The translations under genes were made by a program, and so were the position numbers. The notes beneath the pieces were generated by a model. That model worked only from the letters and a program-made list of their open reading frames with translations. It did not search any database and had not been told where the DNA came from. Positions 517 through 63,319 of a stretch of 64,000 nucleotides of DNA are shown here, piece by piece. This DNA is from a virus. Within the stretch, counting starts at the first letter, position 1. The number at the start of each line of letters is the position of its first letter. The DNA lies in IMG/VR virus record IMGVR_UViG_3300035670_009931, positions 1-64,000 of that record; one strand, written 5' to 3'.

Positions 517-600
517 CGTAAATCCAACTGGGATTCGAACCCAGGCCCCCAGCTGTCCAACAAGGTGTCCTATCCACTAGACGATTAGAACTCTCACGGT
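517..600 (-). ncRNA. Degenerate tRNA-like element: perfect T-arm but no acceptor pairing (pseudo-tRNA or structured RNA)
   Basis: Minus strand has CTGGG-TTCGAAT-CCCAG, a perfect T-arm. A D-arm-like GTC-TAGTGGATAG-GAC is also present. No 7-bp acceptor stem or clean anticodon stem could be built by hand. Confidence 0.25.
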
Positions 601-3373: not shown

Positions 3374-3884
3374 TCAATAATTTGATAGCCCAATCAAAAG
3401 CAATATTAGCTTCGTCAGCCATTGTATCTTTTAATTTAGCTCGTAAATTATTTTTCAATAATTCTGGATCTTTAAATGTTAAACTTAGATGTGATCCTGG
3501 AATTATTTTTTTGATCATTTGCCCACCATATAAATCACCCATATGCCATACATAGAGGTGAGCCATAATTCTATCTTTATCTGGGAATAGTTTTAAAATA
3601 TAATTATGGTAATCTATTGCTGGTTGTCTGAATTTATGAAATGTATCTTTATTAGTATTATTATTATAATCTCTATAAAGATAATGTGTTCTGCAAATAT
3701 CTGGAAGATCTGTCAAAAGACCACAAGCTCCAGCTACACCTTCAATCCCATTATAGATTAATTGTCGTTGATAGATATAATCACACCATATATTAAAAGG
3801 AAGTTTGTTTTTAAAGATGGCTTGCATGAAATTGGTTTTTTCTGCAATATCATGCTTTTCTTTTGTTAATTCTTTTAAACTCAT
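3345..3884 (-). CDS. ho1: Heme oxygenase
   Basis: HO-like N-terminus (LKELTKEKHDIAEKTNFMQAIF). The start is placed at the internal Met whose ATG overlaps the clpS stop (GCATGAGT). The upstream part of the track ORF would overlap clpS. Confidence 0.6.
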   Translation of the reverse strand: MSLKELTKEKHDIAEKTNFMQAIFKNKLPFNIWCDYIYQRQLIYNGIEGVAGACGLLTDLPDICRTHYLYRDYNNNTNKDTFHKFRQPAIDYHNYILKLFPDKDRIMAHLYVWHMGDLYGGQMIKKIIPGSHLSLTFKDPELLKNNLRAKLKDTMADEANIAFDWAIKLLNDYNVIDLE

Positions 3885-4186
3885 GCTTCCTCTACTCGTA
3901 CTTTTAATGGCCAACCATTTGCTCTTGCCAAATCAATAGTATCGATTGATTTTTGCTCGGCAATTTCATAACTATATATAGCTACAGTTGATTTACCTTC
4001 TGTATGAATTTGCATCATGAGTTCTTTTGATTTGGCTTCACTGTGTTTAAAAACTTTCATTAACACAGCAACCACAAATTCCATAGGTGTATGATTATCA
4101 TTTAGAAAAATCACGGCATATTTTTTTGGAGCTATAATTTTTTCAGAAGATAGTTTTTTCTTTTCAAGAATTATTTCTGTTGACAT
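3881..4186 (-). CDS. clpS: ATP-dependent Clp protease adaptor ClpS
   Basis: The core motif YAVIFLNDNHTPMEFVVAVLMKVF matches ClpS. The track start at 4216 is a TTG codon. An ATG at 4186 gives a 101-aa product close to ClpS size. Confidence 0.7.
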   Translation of the reverse strand: MSTEIILEKKKLSSEKIIAPKKYAVIFLNDNHTPMEFVVAVLMKVFKHSEAKSKELMMQIHTEGKSTVAIYSYEIAEQKSIDTIDLARANGWPLKVRVEEA

Positions 4187-13228: not shown

Positions 13229-13465
13229 TCAATACATTTTTTTAGGTAGTTCTTGATCTTTGAGTTTCTTAATCCACCTAGCACGTGCTGCACTTTGCTT
13301 ACGCTTTTTTACAGTAGTAGGTTTTTCATAATGCATTTTTTTTCTTAAATCTTCAAGAATGCCAAGATCATCTACCCGTTGTTTAAATTTTCTTATGGCA
13401 ACTTCAATAGGTAAGTCACCAACAATAATTTTACTTCCTCTTAGATTATTTTTGTTTTTGTTCAT
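13229..13465 (-). CDS. rpsU: 30S ribosomal protein S21 (bS21)
   Basis: KIIVGDLPIEVAIRKFKQ...HYEKPTTVKKRKQSAARAR aligns with E. coli S21 (VALRRFKR...FYEKPTTERKR). Confidence 0.75.
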   Translation of the reverse strand: MNKNKNNLRGSKIIVGDLPIEVAIRKFKQRVDDLGILEDLRKKMHYEKPTTVKKRKQSAARARWIKKLKDQELPKKMY

Positions 13466-14684
13466 ATTTTTCTTTATTAAAAATTAATAATGGAGATTGT
13501 CCATTAACTACATCCTTATTTATAAGTATTGATTTTAAATTTTTCTCAGCTAAATTCATTGCATCATATTGATATGGTAATAGGATTTTTTCCATAATGT
13601 TTTTTAAACCACGTGCATTTGTTTTTAACTCTTTTGCTTTATTTGCTATTTCTATTAAAGCGTCGTTTTCAAATTTAATATCAATTCCGTCCAACTTAAA
13701 AATATATTCATATTGATTTATTAAACTATTCTTCGGATCTTTTAAAATCCTAACTAAATCTTCAGTAGTTAATTCATCGACACTGGTTATCAAACCAAAT
13801 CTACCAATAAATTCTGGTATAAATCCGTATTGTATTAAATCTTTTGGCGTTACTTCTGTAAACTCAACTAAAGACTTTTCAGTAACTGTTGAAACAGCTG
13901 TATTGAATCCTATAGTTTTTGGTTCTTTTCTACTTTGTATTATTTTTTCTAAACCAACAAATGCACCACCACAAATAAAAAGTATATCAGAAGTATCAAT
14001 TTCCATTATATCAGAATTGGGGTGTTTTCTTTTTCCAGAATTAGGCACTCGTACAATATTTCCCTCTATCATTTTTAGCAAGGCTTGTTGTACACCCTCA
14101 CCACTTACATCTCTTGTAATTGATACGTTTTCTCCTTTTCTAGCGATCTTATCTATTTCATCTATGTAAACAATCCCTCTACTTGCTTTAGATAGATCAC
14201 CATCTGATTCATTAATTAATCTTGAAAGAATACTTTCTACATCATCGCCTACATATCCTGCTTCAGTTAAACTAGTAGCATCACAAATTACAAATGGTAA
14301 ATCTAAATATTCTGCAATCTTTTTAGCCAGCATAGTTTTACCAGATCCAGTTGGTCCTAAGAGTAAAACATTTGTTTTTTCTAGTTTTATAGATTTAGAT
14401 GGATTATTAATTCTTTTAAAATGTTGGCTAACTGCCACTGATAGGGTCATCTTTGCATTTTCTTGACCAATGATATATTCATCAAGATATTCTTTTATTA
14501 AAGAAGGATTTAGTAACTTTTTTGTATTTGGTAAATTTTTTACTTTTTCATCATCTAAAATATCTATGCACAGATCTACACATGAATTACATATTGCAGC
14601 GTATTCACCGACAATTAATTTTTCTACTTCTTCCTTATTCTTTCCACAAAAGCTACATGAATGTTCACTGTTTTTGCTCATCAA
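13446..14684 (-). CDS. clpX: ATP-dependent Clp protease ATP-binding subunit ClpX
   Basis: N-terminal C4 zinc finger (CSFCGK...CNSC), Walker A LLLGPTGSGKT and a ClpX-like IGF-type loop GFIPEFIGR. Confidence 0.85.
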   Translation of the reverse strand: MMSKNSEHSCSFCGKNKEEVEKLIVGEYAAICNSCVDLCIDILDDEKVKNLPNTKKLLNPSLIKEYLDEYIIGQENAKMTLSVAVSQHFKRINNPSKSIKLEKTNVLLLGPTGSGKTMLAKKIAEYLDLPFVICDATSLTEAGYVGDDVESILSRLINESDGDLSKASRGIVYIDEIDKIARKGENVSITRDVSGEGVQQALLKMIEGNIVRVPNSGKRKHPNSDIMEIDTSDILFICGGAFVGLEKIIQSRKEPKTIGFNTAVSTVTEKSLVEFTEVTPKDLIQYGFIPEFIGRFGLITSVDELTTEDLVRILKDPKNSLINQYEYIFKLDGIDIKFENDALIEIANKAKELKTNARGLKNIMEKILLPYQYDAMNLAEKNLKSILINKDVVNGQSPLLIFNKEKYEQKQK

Positions 14685-15491: not shown

Positions 15492-16436
15492 TTACCATAC
15501 AAAATTTTCTGAATAATATTGAACTATCTTTTTTAACTCTTTATCAAAATCTGCTTTTGGTATCCAACCTAATTTTTTTATTTTTGAATCATCTAATGCG
15601 TATCTCACATCACCACCTGGACGAGTAAGGTGTTCTATATATGGCCATGGATCTTTTTTACCATTATACAATTTGATTATTTTACTGACAACTTCTATAT
15701 TTGGACATTCAAAGTTTCCATTTATATTGTATATCTCATTCTTGGAATTACTTTTGATTATTGTTATAACAGCATTTGCAGTATCCGAAACATGTAGCCA
15801 ATTTCTTTTTGGTTTACCCTCATCATGTAATTGAATTTTTTTGTCAAGCATTAAATGCTTACAGGTTTTTGGTATTAGTTTTTCAACGTACTGACCAATT
15901 CCATAATTATTTGTTGGTCTAACAATTACGTATGGTAAGTTGAAAGTTCTTGCCCATGCAAGAATTAACATATCTGCTGCTGCTTTAGATGCAGAATATG
16001 GGTTACTTGGTTTTAATAAATCTAGTTCACTATGCTGACCAACTTCAATATCACCATAAACTTCGTCCGTTGAAAAATGAAGTATAGTTGGCATTTTGTA
16101 TATACTTTTTTGTTTGATCAATTCTAGAAGTTTATGCACACCATTGATATTAGATTTTAAAAATACATCGGATGAAACTATGCTGTTATCTACATGAGTC
16201 TCAGCCGCAGTATTAATAACATAGTCACAATCATATAATCTATCTAAATCATTTATATCTGATTTAATAAATTTAAATTGATCTCCATATATTTCCAAAT
16301 CTTTTAATAAATCTATATTAGCGGCATATGTAATTTTATCAACACCAATTACATACCAACCTTGGTCCAAACATTTTTTAGCAATATTAAAACCAATAAA
16401 CCCTAAACATCCAGTAACATACACTACTTTTTTCAT
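15492..16436 (-). CDS. NDP-sugar 4,6-dehydratase / NAD-dependent epimerase (SDR family)
   Basis: N-terminal GxxGxxG (VTGCLGFIGFNI) and catalytic YxxxK (YSASKAAAD). Confidence 0.7.
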   Translation of the reverse strand: MKKVVYVTGCLGFIGFNIAKKCLDQGWYVIGVDKITYAANIDLLKDLEIYGDQFKFIKSDINDLDRLYDCDYVINTAAETHVDNSIVSSDVFLKSNINGVHKLLELIKQKSIYKMPTILHFSTDEVYGDIEVGQHSELDLLKPSNPYSASKAAADMLILAWARTFNLPYVIVRPTNNYGIGQYVEKLIPKTCKHLMLDKKIQLHDEGKPKRNWLHVSDTANAVITIIKSNSKNEIYNINGNFECPNIEVVSKIIKLYNGKKDPWPYIEHLTRPGGDVRYALDDSKIKKLGWIPKADFDKELKKIVQYYSENFVW

Positions 16437-16444
16437 TTTTATCC

Positions 16445-17239
16445 TTAATTAAAATAATTTTTAATTCCAAAATTTAAACCTAATAAATTTATGTTTAAAT
16501 TATCTATCCGAGAACTATTTCCAGTATAATTTAATTTACTATCAGAATCAATAATAATTTCATTTTTTATACCATGAGTATTAACGAATGTTTTTAAAAA
16601 ATCACTGAGTTTAATTTTTTGAGAATATACACAATTAATGTCTTTTATATCAACATCATTTTCTATCACAAATTCCGTTATTTTGCATAAATCTTGTATA
16701 CTTATATAATCAAAAAATCTATCATTAGATAATTTAAAGGTATCATTAGTTGATAGTAACTTTGGAATCAACCTAGTGTTTTTTTCATTAGATCCAAAAC
16801 AACCAAAAATTCTTAAGGTCATCAAGTTATCTTTCTCATAACATAATCTACTCATCATGTTATGACCATATCCATAACTATCTTCTGGCAGTTTTACAAA
16901 TATGTCTACTTCTCTTGCATTCTCTATATTGGTTGTTCTATCAAATTCTGCACCAGACCCATAATGAATAAACTTACCAAACTTAGATGAATTATTATAA
17001 AAATTCATAAAAATGCTAAGATTGTTTCTAGTATCCACTAGTAATGGGTCTGAACTATATGAAACTGCTGTATTTAAAATGCAGTCAAAATAATTACTAG
17101 AAAGAAAATGTTTAACATCAACGTAATTATATAAGTCTAATCTCTCTCTAGTTACAGGTATTACATCAAACTTTTTAGACAAAAATTTTACCAAATGGTT
17201 ACCAATAAAACCATTAGATCCTAAAACAGCTATTTTCAT
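16445..17239 (-). CDS. NAD(P)-dependent sugar epimerase/reductase (SDR fold)
   Basis: N-terminal Rossmann motif VLGSNGFIGNHL. Confidence 0.55.
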   Translation of the reverse strand: MKIAVLGSNGFIGNHLVKFLSKKFDVIPVTRERLDLYNYVDVKHFLSSNYFDCILNTAVSYSSDPLLVDTRNNLSIFMNFYNNSSKFGKFIHYGSGAEFDRTTNIENAREVDIFVKLPEDSYGYGHNMMSRLCYEKDNLMTLRIFGCFGSNEKNTRLIPKLLSTNDTFKLSNDRFFDYISIQDLCKITEFVIENDVDIKDINCVYSQKIKLSDFLKTFVNTHGIKNEIIIDSDSKLNYTGNSSRIDNLNINLLGLNFGIKNYFN

Positions 17240-17985
17240 ATTTTCAAAAGTTCTTTAACGACAAGCTCATTTTCTAATTCAGCTTCATCAAGAAATGGTG
17301 TCATGTCGTGTAAACCAGCTTGTTTACCATTTTTTAATGCTTGAGCAGGTAAAATTTCTTGATCTTTTTTGCAACGACAATCTATGATACATGGGCCGGG
17401 TTTTTCTAGTATAATTGAAAATTTATTTAGATCATTAGCCAATCGCATATCTACAAAATCTATACCAAATGCAGTGGCAACGTTTTTAAAGGAGGGAAAC
17501 CATAAACCAGTTTCATTACTAGTCCCATACACTCTACCTTCAAAATACTTAGTTTGTGTATTTTTAATACTTAAATATCCATCATTGTTCAATATAACAA
17601 ATTTAATATTCAAATCATGTTGTTTGACTGTAGCAAGTTCTTGAATATTACTCATAAAACTACCATCACCTATGATACTAATGACTTGTTGGTTACTTGC
17701 CATACTGACACCAATAGATGCTGGGAGTGCCCATCCCATATCAGCCTGTGCTGGACTAAAAATAAAACGTTGACCTGTCTTAGCATTTAACGCTACTGGC
17801 CCTGCATAACTAATACTACCAGCATCACCCATCAGAATATCTTCAACCCTACTATGTTTATTAATAGCATCTAATACAGCGTAGATATTCAAATCGTAAT
17901 CTCTATTGTTTGCTTCGTATTCTGGTTGCATTACTGGCCATATATTTTTCCAGTGATTGCATTTATCAATCCAATCTTGATTCAT
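17236..17985 (-). CDS. TPP-dependent enzyme, C-terminal TPP-binding (PP) domain (acetolactate-synthase-like)
   Basis: GDGSF...N TPP-binding motif (IIGDGSFMSNIQEL). The ORF overlaps the upstream N-terminal ORF by 4 nt. Confidence 0.65.
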   Translation of the reverse strand: MNQDWIDKCNHWKNIWPVMQPEYEANNRDYDLNIYAVLDAINKHSRVEDILMGDAGSISYAGPVALNAKTGQRFIFSPAQADMGWALPASIGVSMASNQQVISIIGDGSFMSNIQELATVKQHDLNIKFVILNNDGYLSIKNTQTKYFEGRVYGTSNETGLWFPSFKNVATAFGIDFVDMRLANDLNKFSIILEKPGPCIIDCRCKKDQEILPAQALKNGKQAGLHDMTPFLDEAELENELVVKELLKI

Positions 17986-18995
17986 ACTAGCATTTCCTTA
18001 AAAAAATCTTTTAAATTGATATTATATTTTTCATGTATTTCAATTATATCTTTATTCAATTCATTTTTGTCTATGTCAATCATAATTTTATAACTGTATG
18101 GACTAAACTGTTTTGGATCATATCCTATTACGCTAGCTCCTAAACTGCTACCAAGAACTATCATTAGATCAGCGTTTTGCATGGCAAAATTTCCAGCCCT
18201 GCTACCTTTTATTCCTATTGCACCTATACTTAGGTTATGTGAATTTGCAGTATAATCTCTTGCACCATAAGTGCTTACATATGGTATGTTATATTTTTCT
18301 ATAAATTGTACAAATTCTTCCACTGTATTACTTTGTCGTATACCATAGCCTGCAATAATAATAGGACGAGTAGACCTTTCTATTGTTTTTTTAATTTTTG
18401 AAACATCATTATTAAATTCGTTATTAAAGCTAGGATGATATGTTCTGTATTTTGATGGCATTTGAGCAGTTTGTATATCACCTGGGATATCTACCCATAC
18501 TGGTCCAGGTCTATCACTTTGTGCAATATGAACTGCATATTGTATTGCATATACAACATCTTCAATGTTGTCAACAAAGCAACTAAATTTAGTCATAGAT
18601 GAATAAGTTTCAACAATATTATGTTCCTGAATTCCATATTTTCTAATATTAACGTTTTTAGTTCTATTAATATAATTGCTACATGTAGATAATCTAACGT
18701 TACCAGATAAAAATAGAACAGGTACACTATCTTGCCATGCATTAAGAACACTGGTGGCACAATTTGTACCAGCGCATCCTGTGGTAGGATTAACAACGGA
18801 AAGTTTTCCAGTAAATTTACTTTCACCTATTGCAGCATGACCAGCACTTTGTTCGTGATGATAACAAATATAGTTTATTTTTCCATTTTTAATAAACCCG
18901 TCATTCAATCCACTTGCGCCACCACCCATTAAACCATGAACATTTCTAATTCCTATATTGTACAGGTAGTCGGCTATCCAATCACATACTCTCAT
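17982..18995 (-). CDS. TPP-dependent enzyme, N-terminal Pyr plus central domains (partner of 17236-17985)
   Basis: Pyr-domain-like N-terminus. The two ORFs together total about 586 aa, the size of an ALS/YerE-type enzyme. Confidence 0.6.
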   Translation of the reverse strand: MRVCDWIADYLYNIGIRNVHGLMGGGASGLNDGFIKNGKINYICYHHEQSAGHAAIGESKFTGKLSVVNPTTGCAGTNCATSVLNAWQDSVPVLFLSGNVRLSTCSNYINRTKNVNIRKYGIQEHNIVETYSSMTKFSCFVDNIEDVVYAIQYAVHIAQSDRPGPVWVDIPGDIQTAQMPSKYRTYHPSFNNEFNNDVSKIKKTIERSTRPIIIAGYGIRQSNTVEEFVQFIEKYNIPYVSTYGARDYTANSHNLSIGAIGIKGSRAGNFAMQNADLMIVLGSSLGASVIGYDPKQFSPYSYKIMIDIDKNELNKDIIEIHEKYNINLKDFFKEMLV

Positions 18996-19008
18996 ATTAT
19001 CTCCGGTT

Positions 19009-20334
19009 TTATAAAAATAAACTCATGAAGTTATCAACTTTTTCTCCTATATATGATATCTGTTCAGGTGTTATCACTGGACTAGTTCCATGGAAAAAAG
19101 TATTTTTCATAACAAAAGTTGCCACTGGAAAATTATTTTTTGCATCTTCTGGATTCATCAAATGACTATATGCTGGTTGTAACATAATATTTCCAGCAAA
19201 ATATGGCCTAGTTTGTATGAGATTTGTTTCAAGATAATCGACCAAATCAAATCTAGAGAATGGCGCATTCTCCCTTATTGTCAAGGGGAACGCAAACCAA
19301 CTAGGATCACTTTTATTTTGTGCTGTCGGTAAATGAAAGAACTCTTCATACTTTTTATAGATATCTAAAAGCAAACTATAATTTCTTCTTCTTAATTGAT
19401 GAATGGTTGGCAACTTATCTATTTGAACTAGACCCATAGCCCCCTGCAATTCTATCGGTTTCAAATTAAATCCAATTTCATCATATACATACTTGTGATC
19501 AAAAATTTCATTTTTCATACAAGGTATCCATTCTGAGAAACGTTTACCGCATGTACCACACTGCAATTTATTTGCTTCTGGTCCAACACAGTAGCAACCT
19601 CGTCCCCATTCTCTAAATGACCTAGCGATAACTTCTAAATCATAAGTTTTGCAAGCAACAAAACCCCCCTCACCCATTGTCATATGATGTGCTGGATAAA
19701 AGCTACAGCTAGCCATTTCACCAAAACTACCTAAAGGTTTGCCATCATATGTGCTACCTAACGCATCACAGCAATCCTCTAGTAAAATTAAATTATACTT
19801 TTTAACCAATTCCATTACTTGATCCATATTTGGTGGATTTCCCAGTACATGAGCAAAAGTTATTACACGTATATTATGTTCTTTAATTAAATCTTCAGCT
19901 TTGGATAAATCTAAATTTAATGTATCTATTTCAATGTCCAAAAATACTGGTTCAAATCCCATTTGTAAAGTTGGGTTCAATGTAGTTGGAAATCCAGCTA
20001 TAGGCATTAAAACTTTAGTTCCTTTTGGTAAGTTATATCCTCGCTTTGATGTCAGGGTTGCCATCATAAGTAGGTTTGAACTAGATCCACTATTAGTTAA
20101 AATACCATGTTCTTTACCAAATTGTTTTGGGAACTCTTTTTCAAATTTTAAACATTTATCTCCCATAACCAACCAACCATCTAACATGGAAGATATAGAA
20201 GATACAAATTCATTTTCATCAAAATATGGACCGGCATAATTTACAAAATCTTTACCTGCTATCCATTTTTTATTTTGATTTTTATTTTTTATATATTCAT
20301 TAATATTTTGTAAAATTTGTTCTTTAGTTATCAT
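19009..20334 (-). CDS. DegT/DnrJ/EryC1-family PMP-dependent sugar 3-dehydrase (DdhC/RfbH E1-like)
   Basis: Fold-type I sugar aminotransferase core. The usual SF(Y/H)PTK lysine is replaced by His (SFYPAHHMT), as in E1 dehydrases. A cysteine cluster (CYCVGPEANKLQCGTCGKRFSEWIPC) could bind Fe-S. Confidence 0.6.
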   Translation of the reverse strand: MITKEQILQNINEYIKNKNQNKKWIAGKDFVNYAGPYFDENEFVSSISSMLDGWLVMGDKCLKFEKEFPKQFGKEHGILTNSGSSSNLLMMATLTSKRGYNLPKGTKVLMPIAGFPTTLNPTLQMGFEPVFLDIEIDTLNLDLSKAEDLIKEHNIRVITFAHVLGNPPNMDQVMELVKKYNLILLEDCCDALGSTYDGKPLGSFGEMASCSFYPAHHMTMGEGGFVACKTYDLEVIARSFREWGRGCYCVGPEANKLQCGTCGKRFSEWIPCMKNEIFDHKYVYDEIGFNLKPIELQGAMGLVQIDKLPTIHQLRRRNYSLLLDIYKKYEEFFHLPTAQNKSDPSWFAFPLTIRENAPFSRFDLVDYLETNLIQTRPYFAGNIMLQPAYSHLMNPEDAKNNFPVATFVMKNTFFHGTSPVITPEQISYIGEKVDNFMSLFL

Positions 20335-21176
20335 TCTTGAATTTGTCCTTTCATAGTATTATACACTACTTTTAAACGATCTCCAAACCTGTCCCATGCA
20401 ACAGTATCTTCTTCATTATTAAGGTTTTGTTGATGCCAAAATTCATCAGTAATATATGCACCGGGATCTGTAGGTTTTCTATCTGCTTGTTGACCAACTA
20501 CTTGTTTAACTGTTTTAAAGAATTCCCAACTCTTAGAGTAATAATGATGTATTCGTAATTTATCATGACTTATTGCACTGCATGGATAATTTAATCCTTG
20601 GGTTATTAATCTACCTTCAACATCATATGTTCCATATTCAGTACCTAAACAATGACCATCTTTTCTTACCCAAATATTACCTGCATTTGGACCTCCCCGT
20701 AAAATTGATTTTATATGATGATTTAGTTTATGATTTAACGGTGCTCTTTTTGTAAAACATTCTGTAACTAAGCTAGGTTCCCAACTTATATGCCCATTAT
20801 TACCAAACATTGTCCAGTAAATACCCAGACAACTCAAACGTAAATTCATGTAATTTACTAAGAAATCTTTAATATTATGGTGTTGTATGGGTACATAGAA
20901 CTCATCTGCATCTGCACTGATTATCCAATCAAATTCTCCACTAGCACGATGCTGAAATACATACTCCCAATACCTATTACCAGCATCATTGCCTATAACT
21001 TGCATGGGTCTTATATCATAAAACTTTGATAATTTTTTTATAATATCAAAACTTGAATCAGTGCTCATATGATCATATACTAGAAATGTATCCACTCCTA
21101 ACATATGATACCATGCAAACCATTCTATTAAATGTCTTGAATTATTTCGTTGTATTAAACTTACTGCAATTTTCAT
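20331..21176 (-). CDS. Glycosyltransferase (GT92/DUF23-like)
   Basis: Pattern HLIEWFAWYHMLGVDTFLVYDHMSTD resembles the GT92 signature. Assignment by recall only. Confidence 0.45.
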   Translation of the reverse strand: MKIAVSLIQRNNSRHLIEWFAWYHMLGVDTFLVYDHMSTDSSFDIIKKLSKFYDIRPMQVIGNDAGNRYWEYVFQHRASGEFDWIISADADEFYVPIQHHNIKDFLVNYMNLRLSCLGIYWTMFGNNGHISWEPSLVTECFTKRAPLNHKLNHHIKSILRGGPNAGNIWVRKDGHCLGTEYGTYDVEGRLITQGLNYPCSAISHDKLRIHHYYSKSWEFFKTVKQVVGQQADRKPTDPGAYITDEFWHQQNLNNEEDTVAWDRFGDRLKVVYNTMKGQIQE

Positions 21177-21179
21177 ATA

Positions 21180-21833
21180 TTATCTTATAATAAATTGTGA
21201 ATAATAATCAAATGCTTTTAATCTAAAATTTAGATCAGTTGCTGGCCATTGTATTACAAAATCACCTAGTGACCAATCACCAACTGTTCCCAATTTATCA
21301 ATAAGTGGCTCCGGATAACGACCTCTATACAATGAATAATTGTATGAATTCATTACCTTTTGAGGAACTAATTTGACTAAATCATTTTTATATTTTTCAT
21401 ATGTATCTTTCATAATACCCTGTTCACCTTCCCAATTGGTATATGTCGGTAAAGTTTCAGCTATCATGTTTAGATAATCTCTACCTTCGGGCGAATTTCT
21501 AAGTAGAAAACTATCAGAGTTGATACCATTAAAATCTGATGCAATAATTAAATGATAATTTGTATCAGCTATATCTTCTAATTTTATTTTAAAATTGGTG
21601 ATCATTAAATCACCACCTGTCCACCATATCCAAGAATCATTTTCAATCTTACTAATAACATCTTGTAAAATTTGTATCTTAGCAATTTGGGCTGAACGCA
21701 TATCATTCCACGTAATCAATCTTAAATCATGATTGTATCCATGTAAATTACAATATGGAACTTTATTATTGTGCCAAGTTTTATCCATTAATGGCTGATA
21801 TGTACTATCATAATAACTAACTAATGTAAACAT
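21180..21833 (-). CDS. Hypothetical protein, possible glycosyltransferase
   Basis: 217-aa ORF located inside the glycan cluster. Confidence 0.35.
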   Translation of the reverse strand: MFTLVSYYDSTYQPLMDKTWHNNKVPYCNLHGYNHDLRLITWNDMRSAQIAKIQILQDVISKIENDSWIWWTGGDLMITNFKIKLEDIADTNYHLIIASDFNGINSDSFLLRNSPEGRDYLNMIAETLPTYTNWEGEQGIMKDTYEKYKNDLVKLVPQKVMNSYNYSLYRGRYPEPLIDKLGTVGDWSLGDFVIQWPATDLNFRLKAFDYYSQFIIR

Positions 21834-21836
21834 CTA

Positions 21837-22766
21837 TTAACCTATTGTTGTTATAGTTTTCTTCTCAGTGGAATGGTCTGTTTTCTTTATTAGATATTCA
21901 ACAATTTGAGAGGCTATATTTTCATTTACTGTATTACTAAAATATGTATTAGCGTTGTACTCACCTTTACCAGTTAAACAATCAGTTGCTCGAAAATTAA
22001 ATGAAAGAAATGTTTTACTTGAATCTAACAAATTTTCTTTAGTGTGACAGAAACTAAATGGTCCGCTATTTTTTCCAACAATTAGTTTTGCATATTTACT
22101 TAGAAAAGATATTTGATTTAGATTTCCTTCATTTGCAGAAAACAAATCATCAGTATATGTAATATTTGGTCTGTTAATGTTTAGTTTATGTGCAACTAAA
22201 AATTCATGATCTTTGAATTTATCTGCCATATCTTTAATGGTGTTTTCCATTATGCCCATTGCACTTTGACCACTTTGTTGAATACCATTACAAAATAAAA
22301 CAATTGGTTTCTGTGATTTTTCTTTCAAATACTTATGACAAGCATCCAAATCAAATTTAGAATAATCAGTTTCAGGTAAGTAATAACTAAAATCATTATC
22401 AAACTTTATATCAAGAATCTCAAAGTATTCTCGCCATGCTGAATGTAAAAGCGGATAATTAGCATGATGACCGGGAGCTAGATGCTTTCCGATCCATGAT
22501 CCTATCCATGTACTAATAAATAATGTGCCACTATCTTCATGAAAAATATATGGCAATTCTTTTTTTACATCTCTAAATGGTATTTGATATGTTCTAATAA
22601 ACCTACAATCAACATCTGCGATAATGCTTTCATGCTTATCGTGGGCATAAGAAAAACCAACGTCATCTAATTGACGTATGATATCTTTTACGAATCCTTT
22701 GGTGACAAAACAGTCACCATTTTTTTCGTAATTGTAAAATATAATATTGTTAAGAGTCGTATACAT
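21837..22766 (-). CDS. Hypothetical protein (glycan-cluster member)
   Basis: 309-aa ORF. Confidence 0.4.
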   Translation of the reverse strand: MYTTLNNIIFYNYEKNGDCFVTKGFVKDIIRQLDDVGFSYAHDKHESIIADVDCRFIRTYQIPFRDVKKELPYIFHEDSGTLFISTWIGSWIGKHLAPGHHANYPLLHSAWREYFEILDIKFDNDFSYYLPETDYSKFDLDACHKYLKEKSQKPIVLFCNGIQQSGQSAMGIMENTIKDMADKFKDHEFLVAHKLNINRPNITYTDDLFSANEGNLNQISFLSKYAKLIVGKNSGPFSFCHTKENLLDSSKTFLSFNFRATDCLTGKGEYNANTYFSNTVNENIASQIVEYLIKKTDHSTEKKTITTIG

Positions 22767-22768
22767 AA

Positions 22769-24067
22769 TTATTGTTTTGTTATTAATTTAATTAAATTAT
22801 TGGCAATTTCTTCAATCACGTTTACTGTTACTGAATTACCAAATAGATCAAAAATTTCTTCTGTTGTTAAGTGATTCGTTTTATATGTTAAAGGAAATCC
22901 AAATAATTTTTTAAGCTCGGAATGACTAAGTTTTCTTAGACCAGTATTTTCAATTACCCCCAAACGAGTTGAATCCGTAGCAACTACAGTTGGAATAATA
23001 TTATTATCATCAATTATTTTACTAAATTCAAAACTTAATTTACCAGTTGTTAATGTGTATCCCATTGGTAAATCAGTCCTTTTTATTTTTGTTTTAACAT
23101 TATTAATTATTTTATAGTCTTTTAAATATTCTTGTTTTAGATAACCTTTTTCAGTTAGTGCATTTAAATCATTTTCTAAATTTTCATAATCCATAAATGT
23201 TTTAATTTGATTTAAAGAAAGAGGAATCCCATCGAACCAAGATGTACCATTTTCTACGGACCATTTTTTATTTCTTCTTTTTACTATTAAAGAATTAATT
23301 AGTTCTTTTTGTTTTGGTGTGATTGATCCTTTTATACCCAAATCCCAACTATGAATATTATTATCTCCACCTCTTTTGTCATTAATTGATTTACCAGCTA
23401 ATAAATTTAGATTATTAAATGATGATTTTAAAAGAAAATTTAATTTACTATTTGGTGTTTCTAAGTTATAATCTCTAATATCTTTAAAAGTAACAGCTTT
23501 AAAATTTGTACTAAAATCAAATATATTTTGTAAATTTAGATTTAAATCTTTTCTAACTCCAGCAATATAAATTCTTTTTCTCCCTTGAGCTAGCCCAAAA
23601 TTTTTAGAATTTAATAATTTCCATGAAAAATCATATCCTATTTGATCAAGTATTGCCAATATCGTAGATAAAGTATTTCCTTTATTATGGTTTATTAAGC
23701 CTTCTACATTTTCCAAAATAAAACATTTTGGTTTTATATCATTGAGGATTCTTGCAACTTCAAAAAATAATGTACCCCTAGTGTCTTCAAACCCCAAACG
23801 TTTTCCAGCAGATGAAAACGCTTGGCAAGGGAATCCAGCCAATAAAAAATCAAATGAACCTAATTCAGATGTATTAATTTTTCTAACATCTTCAATATTT
23901 GATTTTTCAAAATTAAGTTGGTATGTTTCTATTGCTGATTTTTTTATATCAGATGATAGTATACATTCACCAATTAAATTATTTCTTGACAGTGCTTGTT
24001 GAAGTCCTAGTCTAAATCCACCTATTCCACAAAATAAATCTATAAATTTTATTTTTTCATTAATCAT
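22769..24067 (-). CDS. dcm: DNA (cytosine-5)-methyltransferase
   Basis: Motif I FCGIGG, motif IV GFPCQAFS, motif VI ENV and motif X GNSVTV are all present. Confidence 0.8.
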   Translation of the reverse strand: MINEKIKFIDLFCGIGGFRLGLQQALSRNNLIGECILSSDIKKSAIETYQLNFEKSNIEDVRKINTSELGSFDFLLAGFPCQAFSSAGKRLGFEDTRGTLFFEVARILNDIKPKCFILENVEGLINHNKGNTLSTILAILDQIGYDFSWKLLNSKNFGLAQGRKRIYIAGVRKDLNLNLQNIFDFSTNFKAVTFKDIRDYNLETPNSKLNFLLKSSFNNLNLLAGKSINDKRGGDNNIHSWDLGIKGSITPKQKELINSLIVKRRNKKWSVENGTSWFDGIPLSLNQIKTFMDYENLENDLNALTEKGYLKQEYLKDYKIINNVKTKIKRTDLPMGYTLTTGKLSFEFSKIIDDNNIIPTVVATDSTRLGVIENTGLRKLSHSELKKLFGFPLTYKTNHLTTEEIFDLFGNSVTVNVIEEIANNLIKLITKQ

Positions 24068-24095
24068 TATAATTTCCAGATTTATTTAATAAATT

Positions 24096-25319
24096 TTATT
24101 TTGAAATTAGCTTAAAATACGGACAAGGTAAAACCAAAGTACCACCACCATTTAGATATTCTTGTTCTCTCATTTCAAATTCGTTAATAAAATGCCAAGG
24201 CAGTACCAAAGCATATTCCGGTTTTGCTTTTCGCATTTCTTCCTCGCTAACTATTGGTATCATTGTTCCAACAGTTTTTAGTCCAAACTTATATGGACTT
24301 CTTTCAGCAATGGCATCTATACAAGTACTATCTAAACCAAAGTGTTGTAATAATGTATTACCTTTTGTACTTGCACCATATCCATAAATTTTCTTATTTT
24401 CTTTTTTGGCCTTATTAACAAAATCAACTACTTGAGTTTTTAATAGTTCTAATTTTTTACCAAAATCTTCCCATACCTCAACATCACGAATATTACATAC
24501 ATTCTTCTCATATGCTAAAATACTTTCGATTCTAACATTGCATACATCTCTTAGTGGTGCTGTTCCAAAACTATTAATATTGGCGTTTTTCTTTTGAATA
24601 TAAATTCTAAAGCTACCACCATTTGTATCATTTAAACTACAATCTACTATCTTGAATCCATGTGATTCAAATAAGTTTTTTATACTGGTTAAATCATAAT
24701 AATAAACATGTTCATGACATATATTATCGAATGCTAATTGTTTAACCATTAGTGGTGTATAGCTCATTTGTAAAACTAATAATCCATCATTATCCAATAC
24801 TTTATACAAATCTTTAATAAATGGATTAGGATCATCTAAATCATAGAACATCGCAATGCAGGTAATTACTTTTGCGGTGTCTGTTTTTGATGTTATTTTT
24901 TGCCAAGCTTTTAATGAAAAATAGTCTTGTGCAACCGTTGCTACTTTACTACTTTCAGCATAGTATGAATTATCACATGGATCTATACCATATTTTTTCA
25001 TAGTATCTGGTACAGATTTTAACAAAGTACCATCATTACAGGCTATATCTAGCCACTTATCACCTGGATTTAATTTTACTCTTGAACTTATTTCTGATAC
25101 TATACTTTGTAGTTCTTTAGTCATACTAGCGTTAATACCACTTCTGTACCAGTATTGCCCCCACATTGATTCAGCGGGAGCAACTTCTTTTAGTCTTACA
25201 GCCCCAATTTTTTTGTCTAGGTAAAGATCTAAACTATATTTTTTTCTTTTCTTCATGTCGTCTTTTGATTTAATAAAATCACTGACGTAATACTTCCCCA
25301 AAGCTAATACTTTTTTCAT
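24096..25319 (-). CDS. SAM-dependent methyltransferase (sugar C-methyltransferase-like architecture)
   Basis: Class I MTase motif (LDIACNDG) plus a C-terminal domain of the kind found in NDP-sugar C-methyltransferases. Confidence 0.5.
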   Translation of the reverse strand: MKKVLALGKYYVSDFIKSKDDMKKRKKYSLDLYLDKKIGAVRLKEVAPAESMWGQYWYRSGINASMTKELQSIVSEISSRVKLNPGDKWLDIACNDGTLLKSVPDTMKKYGIDPCDNSYYAESSKVATVAQDYFSLKAWQKITSKTDTAKVITCIAMFYDLDDPNPFIKDLYKVLDNDGLLVLQMSYTPLMVKQLAFDNICHEHVYYYDLTSIKNLFESHGFKIVDCSLNDTNGGSFRIYIQKKNANINSFGTAPLRDVCNVRIESILAYEKNVCNIRDVEVWEDFGKKLELLKTQVVDFVNKAKKENKKIYGYGASTKGNTLLQHFGLDSTCIDAIAERSPYKFGLKTVGTMIPIVSEEEMRKAKPEYALVLPWHFINEFEMREQEYLNGGGTLVLPCPYFKLISK

Positions 25320-27546: not shown

Positions 27547-30063
27547 TTATTGTCCTTCTGATACATTCTGATTCATCTTGTGCAACTTATCAAGTTCATC
27601 AGTAAATGCTTTTCCTGCTAGTTTTATATTACCAGTATCTTTCATAACGTTATATGCAACATCAATTACATCTAACATTTGTTCATTTGATGGAGTCCAT
27701 CCACTAACAGCATTTTTCAAAAATCGCATGATTGATGGAAGCGTTGTTATAAGATATTGTTTATATGCTTCTGGATCTTTTTTTGGATCACCTGTATTTT
27801 CTGTAAAACTTTCACTTGTCTTTTTTTTACTGTTGTCGTCTATATCAGAATCTGGTACAATTTTTGCAGGTATAGATTTTATATCTGCTATTTTATGTGC
27901 CCAAAATCTGTGATGACCATCTAATACTTGATAACCTTTTCTATATTTGCGTACTAAAATAGCGGGGAGTTTATCCCCTTTCTTTAGTTTTGTTACCATT
28001 CTTTTAATCTTAGTTTTGCTTTCCGTTTGATGCATCTTTTTACTAGGTTCAAAAGTAGTAAGTTTATCAATCGGTATATTAATTGTTGGTAACTTATCAA
28101 ATCCGGTATCATCTACATCTGCACCATAATATTCAGGATCGGTGTATAGTTTTATTTTACCTTCCGCCACACCTTGCTTCAATCTTGCACTTTGTAATTC
28201 ACCACTAGTAATATACTTTACCGGTAATGATTTTATGTTTGAGTCAACCGCTTTAGCCAATCTATGAAGACCATCAATTACAGTCAATTTACCATTGTTG
28301 CTTTTTGTAATCACAACAGGAACTGATATATCGGCATTTTTTAATCTGGTTATATCCGGTTCATCATATGCTAATACCCATGCCAATTTACTTACTGAAC
28401 ATTGTTTAGTTGGCTTAGTTTCTGCCATAGCCAAAACTTTATCAAAATCATATTCTACTCCGTCATGGGTAATTGATCCGCCCTCTTTATATGAGCCTTC
28501 CGTCAAACCTTTTTGTTTTGATTTCTTTGCTTTATCTAAATAATATTTTCGTAGTTCTAAATCTTTTTTTGTTGGTGTGCGAACTAAATCAAGATGTCTA
28601 TCTACCGGTTCTTCTATTATATTTTCATCGGGAACATGAATTGATTTTATGTGAGGTAGACTTGAAAATTCGTTATTATTACCGCCCGGTTCCCACATAT
28701 CTTTACCATTCTTGTCATATCTAGGCAATTTATGTAAATAGACATTTTCACCGTGTCTTAGTTTACCATTAAATAAAATCAATTGATCTTTTTGGTCGAA
28801 CATACCGGTATCAGATCCATCGGTTGTCATTCCCATTTTTATTGCAGTATTCTTATCAGCAGTTGCATATATAGCAAATCTATTACTACCTTCTTCTCCA
28901 CCAGTATCATGTGCTTGTTTAGGAACTAATACGTTAATTCTATGTTTTGAACCATGCCACAAGTATTTTTGTTTATCAGCTTGTTCACTTACTTTTTTTT
29001 TACAACTACCAGGTTTTCCTGCTGGAACACCACGTACTCTGGTATAACCGGGCCAACATTTTAATTCGTCTAACTTATCAGATTCATTGTTAGCTATCAT
29101 TTTTTCCAGCATATTGGAAGGAGTATCTTCATCACCTGCAATATATTCTATAAAATTTTCATGACGATCTTCTAATCCTTTTAGACCAGAATTTATTGTT
29201 CTTGTAACTTCAGTAGTATTTTTAAAATCAGAAACTTTTGGTTTTACACGTGCTCCCCAGTACCACAAAGCAATTTGTGCTGCAATATCTGGATCTTCTG
29301 CTAATTGTGGATTGTTTATTAAATCTTTGCCAATAGCTTTACCTGCAATTCGATAATTATATCTACCTGTTAATTGTATAAATCCACGACCTTTAAATCG
29401 TATACCATCACCAATTTTTGTGTTACCCAATCTTTTTGCTCTGTCAGGTGAATATTTTGGGTCATATCTCTTGAAATAATTTTTACCACCCTGTTCTGCT
29501 AAACGTGAAAAATCTCTAGTTTCATGGGCACATTGTGCCATAAATTGTGCAAGTTCATATCCACTTAAACCTGCTTTTTTTGCATAATTCATCAAGAATT
29601 TTTCTCTTGGGCTACTAGTTATATAATTAACAGTTGGTTGTTTAGTAGCAACTGGTTTAGCTTGTTGAGTAGCTGGTGCAGTATTAGGTGCAGTAGCTGT
29701 TGCAACCGGTTGATTTTGTTTTGGACCTGTCAATGCTTGTTTGGCGGTCATCACACCAGTAGAACCAAGTGCCACTGCACCAGCTAATCCTAAACCAAAT
29801 AATTGGTCACGCCAACCTTCTTCTAAATCATCTGAATAAAATTCATTTAATTTATTCTGTGAAACAAGTTCATTATATTTTTTTCTTGATATATACCAAG
29901 TTCCAGTTGAGGATTTTTTAAATCCAAGATCAGTCAATTGACGATCACTATAACTGCCTTTTAGTTGGCCGGGTTTTAAAAATACAATATCTTTGTATTT
30001 GTTATCTTCTGTAATATTAAATTCTGAAAAACGCATCTTGTATTTATAATTTTTTAAATACAA
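27547..30063 (-). CDS. Multidomain protein: GH19 lysozyme/chitinase-like domain plus two ParB-like nuclease (ParBc) domains
   Basis: GH19 block FKGRGFIQLTGRYNY. Two ParBc-like motifs near the C-terminus (VIDGLHRLAKAV; VLDGHHRFWAHKI). 838 aa. Confidence 0.55.
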   Translation of the reverse strand: MYLKNYKYKMRFSEFNITEDNKYKDIVFLKPGQLKGSYSDRQLTDLGFKKSSTGTWYISRKKYNELVSQNKLNEFYSDDLEEGWRDQLFGLGLAGAVALGSTGVMTAKQALTGPKQNQPVATATAPNTAPATQQAKPVATKQPTVNYITSSPREKFLMNYAKKAGLSGYELAQFMAQCAHETRDFSRLAEQGGKNYFKRYDPKYSPDRAKRLGNTKIGDGIRFKGRGFIQLTGRYNYRIAGKAIGKDLINNPQLAEDPDIAAQIALWYWGARVKPKVSDFKNTTEVTRTINSGLKGLEDRHENFIEYIAGDEDTPSNMLEKMIANNESDKLDELKCWPGYTRVRGVPAGKPGSCKKKVSEQADKQKYLWHGSKHRINVLVPKQAHDTGGEEGSNRFAIYATADKNTAIKMGMTTDGSDTGMFDQKDQLILFNGKLRHGENVYLHKLPRYDKNGKDMWEPGGNNNEFSSLPHIKSIHVPDENIIEEPVDRHLDLVRTPTKKDLELRKYYLDKAKKSKQKGLTEGSYKEGGSITHDGVEYDFDKVLAMAETKPTKQCSVSKLAWVLAYDEPDITRLKNADISVPVVITKSNNGKLTVIDGLHRLAKAVDSNIKSLPVKYITSGELQSARLKQGVAEGKIKLYTDPEYYGADVDDTGFDKLPTINIPIDKLTTFEPSKKMHQTESKTKIKRMVTKLKKGDKLPAILVRKYRKGYQVLDGHHRFWAHKIADIKSIPAKIVPDSDIDDNSKKKTSESFTENTGDPKKDPEAYKQYLITTLPSIMRFLKNAVSGWTPSNEQMLDVIDVAYNVMKDTGNIKLAGKAFTDELDKLHKMNQNVSEGQ

Positions 30064-60893: not shown

Positions 60894-61400
60894 ATGGCAA
60901 CACTAATTCTTAATGCAGATGCATCACCTATATCATTGCTGCCACTAAGTGTAATTTCTTGGGAAGAAGCAATCAGATATTTAGTAAGTGAAAAAGCAAC
61001 ACCGATTGAATGGTACGAAGATTGGATCGTGCGATCAGCACGATGGGACACTCGCGTCCCAGCAGTTATGATGTTGAATGAATTTCAAAAAACTAAGAAA
61101 ACAATTAGGTTCAGTAAGCAAAATGTATTTCTTCGGGATGAATACATATGTCAATATTGTGGAACTGAAGTTACCAGTAAAACTGCAACATTAGATCATG
61201 TATTACCGCAAAGTTATGGTGGTACTAGTACTTGGTTAAATTGCACCACTGCTTGTGGAATATGTAACTCTAAAAAAGGAAATAATAAAAGTATTATTCC
61301 AAATTCAAAACCATGGAAACCTGATTTTTGGTCTCTAGTAAATAAGAGAAAGAAATTGGGGTGGCAAGTTGCACACGAATCATGGAATAATTATATATAA
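60894..61400 (+). CDS. HNH endonuclease (free-standing)
   Basis: CQYCG...LDHVLPQSYGG...N...CGICNSKK gives a Cys4 HNH motif. Confidence 0.65.
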   Translation: MATLILNADASPISLLPLSVISWEEAIRYLVSEKATPIEWYEDWIVRSARWDTRVPAVMMLNEFQKTKKTIRFSKQNVFLRDEYICQYCGTEVTSKTATLDHVLPQSYGGTSTWLNCTTACGICNSKKGNNKSIIPNSKPWKPDFWSLVNKRKKLGWQVAHESWNNYI

Positions 61401-61426
61401 AAAAACGCCCCACTGGGGCGTTTTTC
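61401..61426. terminator. Bidirectional rho-independent terminator between the HNH and infA genes
   Basis: AAAAACGCCCCActgGGGGCGTTTTT, flanked by A/T runs on both strands. Confidence 0.6.
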
Positions 61427-61643
61427 ATTTGTCTCTGTAAACTATTCGTCCTTTAGATGTATCATATGGACTCAGTTCCATGACAACACGATCACCTTCT
61501 AAAATTTGAATTTTATTTTGTCGTATTTTTCCACTTATGTGTCCCAGAATAGTAGAACCAGTTTCCAACTTTACTCTAAACATTGCATTAGGTAAAATCT
61601 GTTCAACTACACCATCTAAAGTTATAAAATCACTTTTTGCCAT
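61425..61643 (-). CDS. infA: Translation initiation factor IF-1
   Basis: The whole 72-aa product aligns with E. coli IF1 ([13 protein letters not shown]...[36 protein letters not shown]). Confidence 0.8.
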
Positions 61644-61662
61644 TTATTAATATTTTCCTTTG

Positions 61663-62985
61663 TTAAATTTTTTCCCCAGTTTCAAATCCCCTAAATCTAA
61701 TAAATCTGGGAAAACGTAAACTATAAGTACCATCTTGATTTAAAGTAATACCATCAGCCCTGATTTCAACAATTTGACCAATGATATTACTACGATTATT
61801 CCAAAAATTATCTCTATCAATATCAGTAAACCCACTGCCAACATTGACGGAAATATTTTTCCCGTCGTCATGTCCCTCGCAAACCAATGCCCCCAAGCGT
61901 CCAACATTTCTTCCTGTACCCTCTTCAACATTGATTACCTCCAAAGAAACATCAATAAATGGTTTAAGTTTTAGCCAAGCATGTGAACGTTTGCATTCAT
62001 ATGGCGCGAGAGGATCTTTAATCATGATCCCTTCATATCCACCATTAATTGCTGTTTGATTGATTTTCTTGAAAATCTGCTGACCTTCTTTGGTGTTAAG
62101 ATTAATGGTTTCATGTGCAAGAATTTTAATGTTACCAAGATCAAAAGATGATTCATTATCCTCATACCATTTACGAAGCATCATACTACGAATCTTTTGA
62201 TTTGTTTCCCAAAATCCCAGTTGAAAATTTTCTAGCGGAATCAGATCAAATAGATATAGAGTTGCGTCGTCTGCATTGACATTACTTTTTCTATACACCT
62301 GCTTCATTAGGTCTTGAAAACTACTACTCATTACTTCCCCATCAAATACATATGGCTTTGTAATAGAGGAAGCAACTTTGGCAAATTGCTTTTTGATATT
62401 TTCAAAATTTAGAAGTTCTTTGCCGTTACGACTGTATTGAACAACATTACCATCAGGATATACAATAGTAAGTACTCTAACACCATCTAGTTTTACTTCA
62501 ATAAGCTTTTCACCAGAAACTTTAGATTGATGATTTAAACTGTCATGCGCAAGTTGACAGCCAAATACAGGAATGGAATATAGTGGCCACTTTTTTTCAA
62601 CTACTTTATTAATAGTTTTTTCGCTAACACCACAACGAAGATCCTTAATTAGAATACGTCTGTACCAGCGATTCCATTCCTCGTTAGTGGCACTGTTCAT
62701 AAGATTTTCAATTAAATCACGGGCAGCATTACCAGTAATCTTACGGGACATCAGTTGGTAAACATTACCCTTGAATGAATCCCAACTGAGTCCAGTACCA
62801 TCTACACCAGATCTTTCAGGAACTTGTTTAATTCCAAATGTAATCAATGGATCAATAGCAAGACGACAACCTTCAAAAAAGATATCGTTTGATTCAACGG
62901 CCAAAGCTTCAATGATTTGTTCTTTGTTGATACGACTTGGATGATTCTCCAAGTTCGCAATAGCGAACGTGCAGCTAGAAATCAT
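61663..62985 (-). CDS. ATP-dependent DNA ligase
   Basis: Adenylation motif I KLDGVR (IEVKLDGVRVLT). 440 aa. Confidence 0.7.
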   Translation of the reverse strand: MISSCTFAIANLENHPSRINKEQIIEALAVESNDIFFEGCRLAIDPLITFGIKQVPERSGVDGTGLSWDSFKGNVYQLMSRKITGNAARDLIENLMNSATNEEWNRWYRRILIKDLRCGVSEKTINKVVEKKWPLYSIPVFGCQLAHDSLNHQSKVSGEKLIEVKLDGVRVLTIVYPDGNVVQYSRNGKELLNFENIKKQFAKVASSITKPYVFDGEVMSSSFQDLMKQVYRKSNVNADDATLYLFDLIPLENFQLGFWETNQKIRSMMLRKWYEDNESSFDLGNIKILAHETINLNTKEGQQIFKKINQTAINGGYEGIMIKDPLAPYECKRSHAWLKLKPFIDVSLEVINVEEGTGRNVGRLGALVCEGHDDGKNISVNVGSGFTDIDRDNFWNNRSNIIGQIVEIRADGITLNQDGTYSLRFPRFIRFRGFETGEKI

Positions 62986-63049
62986 AATTAAAATAAGAAA
63001 GAGTTGAGATGGCTCATTCTAACATGGATACAATGATCTGTCAACTCTA

Positions 63050-63319
63050 TTATTTGCGTCTTTTTTTGCCACCACGGGTTGGACCGGAATAATCTTTTAC
63101 TGGACCACCATGACGCTCACTGCGCATTTTCTTGCCCATTAATTTTACTCCAGTACCTTTTTTACCTTGTGTACCAGTTCCAGCAGTGTGCTTTGAATCA
63201 TGAGCTTTATAACCCAAACTTACACATTGGCTATATCTGACATTGCTAAGACCGGGTTTAGAACACTGACTCTTAGAAGGCTTTGGTATTTTCTTTTCAA
63301 TGATATCACGTAGACGCAT
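63050..63319 (-). CDS. Basic hypothetical protein
   Basis: 89 aa, K/R/G-rich (…GGKKRRK). Confidence 0.4.
   Translation of the reverse strand: MRLRDIIEKKIPKPSKSQCSKPGLSNVRYSQCVSLGYKAHDSKHTAGTGTQGKKGTGVKLMGKKMRSERHGGPVKDYSGPTRGGKKRRK

Follow-up and report, generated by a model that had tools for sequence, protein, structure and literature searches.

Phage-encoded IF-1 is, as such, already known. A 2020 survey of huge phages (Al-Shayeb et al., PMC7162821) lists both IF1 and IF3 in their gene content and proposes that their translation genes intercept host translation, and a ‘translation initiation factor 1A’ belongs to the 39 single-copy core genes of the Jug (jumbo gut) phages (PMC12880540). 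Lak megaphages also carry IF-1, GenBank annotates IF-1 in phage Phosso (PV764938), and PHROGs holds a family for phage IF-1, phrog_30201, under the label of unknown function. The initial annotation of the DNA analysed here regarded infA as rare in phages. That is true of deposited phage records, 36 of which (out of 50,697) hold IF-1, a count inflated by mislabelled bacterial records, including at least those of Acinetobacter MD-2021a (one inspected). Against it stand the reports published since 2020, the place of the gene in the Jug core, and the IF-1 relatives that an alignment-seeded scan detected on at least 571 IMG/VR viral contigs. The inspected record (CAKLQH020000005.1, ‘Acinetobacter phage MD-2021a’, our locus L096) is bacterial chromosome, with infA lying among ansA, truA, gadX, leuB and leuD.

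We analysed a 64,000 nt stretch of viral DNA (positions 1 to 64,000 of IMG/VR record IMGVR_UViG_3300035670_009931; hereafter, the window) that encodes an IF-1. The points that this locus adds to the phage IF-1s already described are a clade of jumbo phages in which the gene is found between a DNA ligase gene and a convergent HNH endonuclease gene, and a change at position 46 of the protein. In length and OB fold, the window protein is like bacterial IF-1 (E. coli and T. thermophilus; PDB 1hr0, 9fco and 9h9h; TM 0.91–0.93), and the residues for contact with uS12, the 530 loop and most of h44 are the same. It differs in having Q46, K44, G34 and Q42, and in being encoded by a phage, beside a DNA ligase gene, with no cellular context.

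The IF-1s of Lak phages, LR756511 and LR756508 come from very large uncultured phages and, like that of the window, are accompanied by further translation genes, S21 among them, but they are 42–57% identical to the window protein and represent separate lineages, and the ligase/IF-1/HNH context occurs in none of them. Y/F44 and K/R46 are kept in Lak phages and LR756511, as well as in DAC19-like Bacteroides phages, whereas the huge phage LR756508 has N44 and N46 (motif Q-H-N-I-N). Closer in these columns are the Sinorhizobium jumbo phage Phosso and its relatives on 460–480 kb IMG/VR contigs, in which G34, a non-basic residue at 46 and a non-aromatic residue at 44 are also found, at 58% identity; here, however, both 44 and 46 are Asn (motif K-N-N-I-N), and the neighbouring genes encode a Clp ATPase and a MutT-like protein instead of ligase and HNH endonuclease. 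With the Jug phages, the window's phage shares an IF-1-family core gene that extends across a jumbo-phage clade, a likeness drawn from their published description; they are gut phages of Bacteroides/Phocaeicola, and differ from the window in environment and gene context.

We also considered the bS21-encoding Bacteroidetes phages of Chen et al. 2022 (PMC9723584), which are freshwater phages, AT-rich (31–34% GC) and of ~300 kb, and which have S21, ClpX-type chaperones, sugar-modification genes and HNH genes in common with the window's phage. Their S21 gene lies on the reverse strand inside a terminase–capsid block (TerL/portal/protease/MCP), whereas that of the window adjoins a ClpX-like gene of the same orientation, with no terminase or capsid gene nearby among the ORFs scanned (~5.9–16.4 kb). 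Neither IF-1 nor the IMG sample numbers of the large contigs are mentioned in the text of that paper or in the supplements consulted. A link between the window's phage and these phages is not established.

Identity and surroundings of the infA-like gene

The gene at 61425..61643 (Table 1) encodes a true, full-length member of the IF-1 family with the IF-1 OB fold. Its product scored 101.6 bits against the infA equivalog TIGR00008 of NCBIfam (cut-off 61.15), with residues 3–70 aligned to positions 1–68 of the 69 in the model, and 89.3 bits against the Pfam family PF01176, eIF-1a/IF-1 (cut-off 30.2), so that the assignment to IF-1 proposed at the outset stood up to profile searches; scores against the archaeal and eukaryotic eIF-1A models were far under their cut-offs. 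A PDB sequence search gave 13 matches, comprising 12 bacterial IF-1s (E values of ~1e-24 to 1e-14) and one archaeal aIF-1A (3e-4), and phmmer over the six-frame ORFs of the window returned a single IF-1 match, far beyond chance (E = 1e-25). Alignments with the IF-1s of C. difficile, S. aureus and E. coli are free of gaps over residues 1–72 or 1–71. The near-colinearity with E. coli IF1 noticed in the initial annotation is thus real, covering residues 1–71 at 58% identity, and identity across solved IF-1s is 56–64%. The protein is a single domain of 72 aa, colinear throughout, within the ~70–75 residues of the family.

A cold-shock or generic S1 protein was the identity that the initial annotation had named as fatal to its reading. 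We rejected this identity: no CSD or S1 family matched the window protein at E <= 0.01 in the family-model scan, and the best matches by both sequence and structure are IF-1s, followed by eIF1A/aIF1A. AlphaFold2, given 26 sequences of the clade, produced a model (pLDDT 89.3) with five strands (residues 7–17, 21–26, 31–36, 52–57 and 64–71) and one short helix (38–42), which is the layout expected of IF-1, where a short helix connects strands 3 and 4 of a five-stranded OB barrel. The top Foldseek matches of the model are IF-1s bound to the 30S subunit, 9h9h_X and 9fco_I (TM 0.93, rmsd 0.9 Å), with 1hr0_W at TM 0.91; eIF1A/aIF1A and the RsgA N-domain trail far behind the IF-1 structures.

Table 1. 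Coordinates, strands and supporting matches of features in the window
Feature	Position	Strand	Remarks
tRNA-Tyr (GTA)	84..167	-	ARAGORN; Rfam tRNA 53.3 bits; ~61 kb from IF-1
tRNA-like gene	518..592	-	ARAGORN four-base anticodon (ggac), no amino-acid assignment; Rfam tRNA 31.6 bits, just over gathering score of 29
DUF2828 + DUF7788 protein gene	5862..7277	-	471 aa; phrog_850 ‘RNA-binding protein’ at 4e-137; near the tRNA genes
Ribosomal protein bS21 homologue	13232..13483	-	PF01165 50.6 bits; phrog_21469; PDB bS21 at 1e-12
ClpX-like AAA+ gene	13446..14684	-	End overlapped by S21 ORF
Sugar-modification run	15492..25319	-	NAD epimerase/dehydratase, DegT-type aminotransferase, C-methyltransferase
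C5 cytosine DNA methylase gene	22769..24067		Within sugar-modification run
Glycoside hydrolase 19/ParB fusion gene	27547..30063	-	838 aa; chitinase/endolysin-like, with ParB N-terminal domain near C-terminus
HNH endonuclease gene	60894..61400	+	Convergent with IF-1; PF14279, PF01844; phrog_16726
Bidirectional intrinsic-terminator-like hairpin	61401..61425	.	A7-CGCCCC-ACT-GGGGCG-T5; MFE -17.4 kcal/mol
infA-like gene, IF-1 homologue (OB fold)	61425..61643	-	72-codon ORF, ATG to TGA; 72 aa
Shine-Dalgarno-like AAGGA	61656..61660	-	12 nt before IF-1 ATG, within 19-nt spacer
ATP-dependent DNA ligase gene	61663..62985	-	PF01068 + PF14743; phrog_114 at 1e-95
Sigma-70-like promoter	63016..63044	-	TTGACA-17-TAGAAT; 11/12 consensus matches, TG before -10 hexamer
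Very basic ORF	63050..63319	-	89 aa, Gly/Lys/Arg-rich, no family match; just upstream of ligase promoter

The placing of the gene between a bidirectional terminator and the DNA ligase gene, also part of the initial annotation, agrees with the features that we located. The ligase gene is directly upstream on the same strand, and 19 nt separate its stop codon from the ATG of IF-1. Cores of the AAGGA type, such as the one in this spacer, precede 26 of the 57 genes of the window, compared with 8% of random positions. The sequence TTGACA-17-TAGAAT precedes the start of the ligase gene by ~59 nt. Over the whole region, promoter-like matches are not in excess (8, versus 11.4 in shuffles). The form TTGAC[AT]-17-TAnAAT lies at -56 to -64 from the ligase in the window and likewise in each of the seven relatives checked, with unrelated spacer sequences, and because the distance is the same despite the differing spacers, we take the sequence before the ligase to be a real promoter of the sigma-70 type, likely serving a ligase/IF-1 transcript. 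Judging by their spacing and the consensus promoter, ligase and IF-1 are probably co-transcribed, in a putative transcription unit that would comprise promoter, ligase, IF-1 and terminator.

Downstream, the terminator-like hairpin occupies the entire gap between the stop codon of IF-1 and that of the convergent HNH gene. Its stem, CGCCCC-ACT-GGGGCG, is perfect and is flanked by seven A and five T residues. An A-tract, GC-stem and T-tract recur at the equivalent place in many relatives with differing stem sequences, and this conservation of the architecture through changed stems makes the case for a bidirectional terminator well founded. In most related loci, the convergent HNH gene is encountered ~220–700 nt (mostly ~250 nt) after the IF-1 start, and it is kept even in one related locus without an adjacent ligase gene.

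Some relatives have additional genes in this neighbourhood. A HesB/IscA-like Fe-S gene (PF01521) lies at the place equivalent to the very basic ORF of the window. Between ligase and IF-1, 36 relatives have a spacer of ~244 nt that holds a conserved ORF of ~80 aa, whose end abuts the start codon of IF-1 (3755..4000 in locus L098, 3757..4000 in L111, and 34 others); its C-terminus reads ...RAK(D/E)LV(V/L)KGLKGE.., and neither Pfam nor PHROG gave a match. A homologue of this ORF is absent from the window, with its 19 nt spacer.

The window is phage DNA, on the evidence of flanking phage genes, composition and viral synteny. It has a GC content of 33% and encodes ribonucleotide reductase subunits, baseplate- and tail-fibre-like proteins, fibre proteins with collagen repeats and lectin folds, an endolysin-like protein, the phage-type ATP-dependent ligase and the HNH endonuclease. 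A virion structural protein is 48% identical to the counterparts in cyanomyophages and in Puniceispirillum phage HMO-2011. The composition of infA itself (GC 32.4%, GC3 16.4%) matches that of the neighbouring genes. The joining of a glycoside hydrolase 19 domain to a ParB N-terminal domain in one 838-aa protein (Table 1) is an unusual fusion.

As well as IF-1, the window encodes an S21 homologue, situated 48 kb away and unlinked to the IF-1 gene. The initial annotation counted S21, IF-1 and the tRNA-Tyr together as several translation-initiation components; this is apt for the first two, but tRNA-Tyr is an elongator tRNA with no part in initiation. Of the bS21 structures matched by this S21, the gammaproteobacterial ones are nearest (E 1e-12) and that of Flavobacterium is farthest (E 2e-3), a further point of difference from the Bacteroidetes phages of Chen et al.; this affinity, together with the use of AAGGA sites, may offer hints of the host, and hints only.

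Relatives, synteny and age of the gene

Among 5.8 billion proteins, 2,091 homologues were found at E <= 1e-10. The best 120 of these are 69–100% identical to the window protein, save one mis-called double-domain entry, and the motif R-Q-N-K-I-Q, which holds K44 and Q46, is common to 115 of them. Three relatives that we looked up at 76–81% identity, one of them on a contig of 332,457 bp, have the same neighbourhood, in the order cell-wall hydrolase, 103-aa ORF, (Fe-S protein), ligase, IF-1 and convergent HNH. More widely, a ligase gene upstream and a convergent HNH gene downstream accompany IF-1 in ~60 viral loci from IMG/VR, JGI and Logan, a count drawn from the 80 closest IMG/VR loci plus loci found earlier. 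The syntenic contigs include ones of 322,512, 332,457 and 354,680 bp, and the identity of their IF-1 to that of the window extends down to 56%. Contigs of >200 kb are a feature of these syntenic relatives; the longest recorded contig with the exact window protein is 66,268 bp. A near-identity DNA search with the last 6 kb of the window gave no match in the phage collection, and the nearest ligase among deposited phages is <=37.5% identical to that of the window.

The gene is under strong purifying selection. Between the window and loci L086 and L087, whose IF-1s are 97% identical to it, there are 31 synonymous and two non-synonymous differences (dN/dS 0.008), and deeper pairs give a dN/dS of ~0.1 with dS near saturation. 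A neighbour-joining tree of 398 unique IF-1s groups 160 of the 167 sequences with Q/T46 in a single pure clade. Without the four signature columns, the median size of the largest such clade across bootstraps is 56. The 72-aa protein is too short for a tree, and the argument for a probable single origin of the ligase-linked clade therefore rests on synteny.

The initial annotation envisaged a phylogeny that would identify the donor of the gene, but no donor lineage can be named. A scan of 185,579 GTDB species representatives, which was seeded with a pattern and is hence biased, gave a best bacterial IF-1 of <=63% identity, with matches spread over Planctomycetota, Gammaproteobacteria, Spirochaetes and Clostridia. 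In an exhaustive HMMER search of 1.84 billion 50%-cluster representatives, full-length bacterial matches were <=65% identical. We attribute the lack of a nameable donor to the age of the gene in the phage lineage.

Some public ‘phage’ IF-1 records are in truth bacterial DNA, as the Acinetobacter phage MD-2021a record illustrates, and the window gene might likewise reflect contaminating host DNA, a chimera of the assembly, or a passenger gene captured of late and now in decay. We regard this as so improbable as to be negligible. The gene has phage genes on both flanks and the same composition as the phage, no sampled bacterial IF-1 exceeds ~65% identity, the neighbourhood is repeated in different samples on dozens of contigs independent of one another, and dN/dS is ~0.01, all of which speaks against such an origin. 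GC3, distance from bacterial IF-1s, low dN/dS and recurring synteny together argue that infA is neither a recent capture nor a contaminant. It is an old, vertically inherited core gene of an AT-rich, largely jumbo phage lineage.

Residues expected to face the decoding centre

Four columns of the IF-1 alignment are specific to the clade: G34, Q42, K44 and Q46 (window numbering with Met1, which from residue 5 on equals T. thermophilus numbering without Met). For comparison we used 61 IF-1s from GTDB genomes and 153 from cluster representatives, of which two are gapped at position 46, leaving 212 unique sequences at that column; the viral set consisted of 131 unique IF-1s from 212 IMG/VR loci, gathered in three differently ranked scans. 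Position 34 is Gly in the clade and Ala in 89% of sequences elsewhere. Position 42, Gln in the clade, is mostly Met, Lys or Arg in cellular IF-1s, and position 44, Lys in the window protein, is Tyr, Phe, Trp or Arg. At position 46, all 212 cellular or representative sequences have Arg or Lys, whereas the window protein has Gln; it lacks the basic residue, although this residue lies outside the curated family definition. As an invariant R/K46 is Gln here, the canonical function cannot simply be assumed.

The change is common among viral IF-1s. Position 46 is non-basic in 73 of the 131 viral sequences (Q in 47, N in 16, T in eight, and D and S in one each), and an aromatic residue at position 44 is found in seven of the 131, compared with 159 of the 214 in the comparison set. 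A Fisher test of viral against comparison sequences gave p ~1e-38, a value that overstates independence, the sequences being related. Within the ligase-linked clade, K/R44 always accompanies Q/T46.

In the structural literature (PMC10913371; bioRxiv 10.1101/2023.10.27.564398, which cites Carter et al. 2001), R41 and R46 are in direct contact with the flipped-out decoding bases A1492 and A1493, K39 and M42 contact G530, and Y60, D61 and R64 contact uS12. Most of this surface is retained. The window protein has K3, P18, A20, F22, R23, H35, G38, K39, R41, Y60, D61, K64, R66 and R70, and the ribosome-contact residues K2/3, P18, R23, G38, K39, R41, Y60, D61, K/R64 and R66 are present and near-invariant in the clade. 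Across the 131 viral IF-1s, the residues for contact with uS12 (Y60, D61 and K64) and with the 530 loop (K3, G38, K39 and R66) are invariant or nearly so.

Bidentate hydrogen bonds to adenine are classically made by amide side chains, as Luscombe and co-workers reportedly set out in 2001. Since the replacements at position 46 are mostly Gln or Asn, both with amide side chains, the pattern suggests that the contact with A1493 may be changed rather than lost. In a literature search of incomplete coverage, we found no description of a position-46 substitution or of a ligase-linked IF-1 clade, and no mutational data on R46.

Probable role of the phage IF-1 during infection

We favour the explanation, to which we assign a probability of about 70%, that the gene encodes a working IF-1, a core gene of an AT-rich, mostly jumbo lineage of uncultured phages, for use on the host 30S subunit. 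The strong constraint on a core gene in an old syntenic clade argues that the phage uses its IF-1 instead of carrying it as a passenger. In this model, host RNA polymerase would transcribe IF-1 with the replication gene ligase from the sigma-70-like promoter, early or mid-infection, and the protein would be translated from the AAGGA ribosome-binding site. Like cellular IF-1, it would bind the A site of the host 30S subunit between helix 44, the 530 loop and uS12, where it could supplement or replace host IF-1 during infection, and initiation complexes would keep forming on phage mRNAs, to the presumed benefit of the phage. Going by the residues at positions 44 and 46, the grip of the phage factor on the decoding centre probably differs somewhat from that of cellular IF-1; Q46 might, for instance, form an amide–adenine hydrogen bond, with K44 supplying a positive charge moved to position 44. 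We conjecture that such an altered contact may shift affinity, release on subunit joining, or initiation fidelity.

The same substitutions could be given more weight. A specialised IF-1 might re-programme initiation, its altered A1493 contact shifting the conformation of the decoding centre, IF3-dependent fidelity or subunit joining, such that ribosomes with the phage factor, and possibly also the phage S21, would favour phage mRNAs or tolerate their start sites. We think this rather unlikely, although several observations point towards it: the contrast at position 46 (73/131 viral sequences non-basic, against 0/212 cellular or representative ones) and that at position 44, the recurrence of the change in different contexts (K/R-I-Q/T in the ligase-linked clade, N-I-N in Phosso and the 460–480 kb contigs), the clustering of the substitutions on the helix in contact with G530, A1492 and A1493, the presence of S21 in the same phage, and the redirection of host translation that has been proposed for genes of this type (PMC7162821, PMC9723584). 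The viral sequences are interrelated, however, so the counts run higher than the independent changes behind them; the substitutions may also be neutral, or else compensated, given the constant pairing of K/R44 with Q/T46 in the clade; and with ordinary AAGGA sites before about half of the window genes, there is no sign of unusual initiation. The wider notion that phage IF-1s form a functionally distinct class, in which many members, the whole ligase-linked clade among them, exchange the basic residue at 46 (for Gln, Asn or Thr) and the aromatic one at 44 whilst keeping the other contacts, strikes us as somewhat less doubtful, and we put it forward tentatively.

Bacterial IF-1 has partial RNA chaperone activity, melting RNA and preventing termination. 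The phage protein might accordingly be imagined as a general RNA chaperone, a cold-shock-like OB protein that acts off the ribosome in RNA melting or antitermination. IF-1 and proteins of the CspA type share the OB/S1-like fold, a relaxed binding to the ribosome could be read from the absence of the arginine that contacts A1493, and IF-1 levels are linked with cold-shock translation in E. coli (PMC6511846). There is no cold-shock-domain match, however, the significant matches being IF-1, eIF1A or the RsgA N-domain throughout, and near-invariant contacts for uS12 and the 530 loop would have no obvious role off the ribosome. The conservation of those residues in 131 viral sequences makes this explanation the less likely one, and we consider it improbable. 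A working IF-1 on host 30S subunits remains the reading that we prefer.

The question of why large phages carry parts of the translation machinery has so far been argued mostly for S21 and tRNAs. The recurring loss of the A1493-contacting arginine offers a handle on whether phage IF-1s supplement host initiation or re-tune it, and because the difference amounts to two residues in a 72-aa protein, re-tuning by a phage IF-1 is experimentally tractable. If phage IF-1s do hold the decoding centre differently during initiation, this would represent a phage-specific tuning of host ribosomes.
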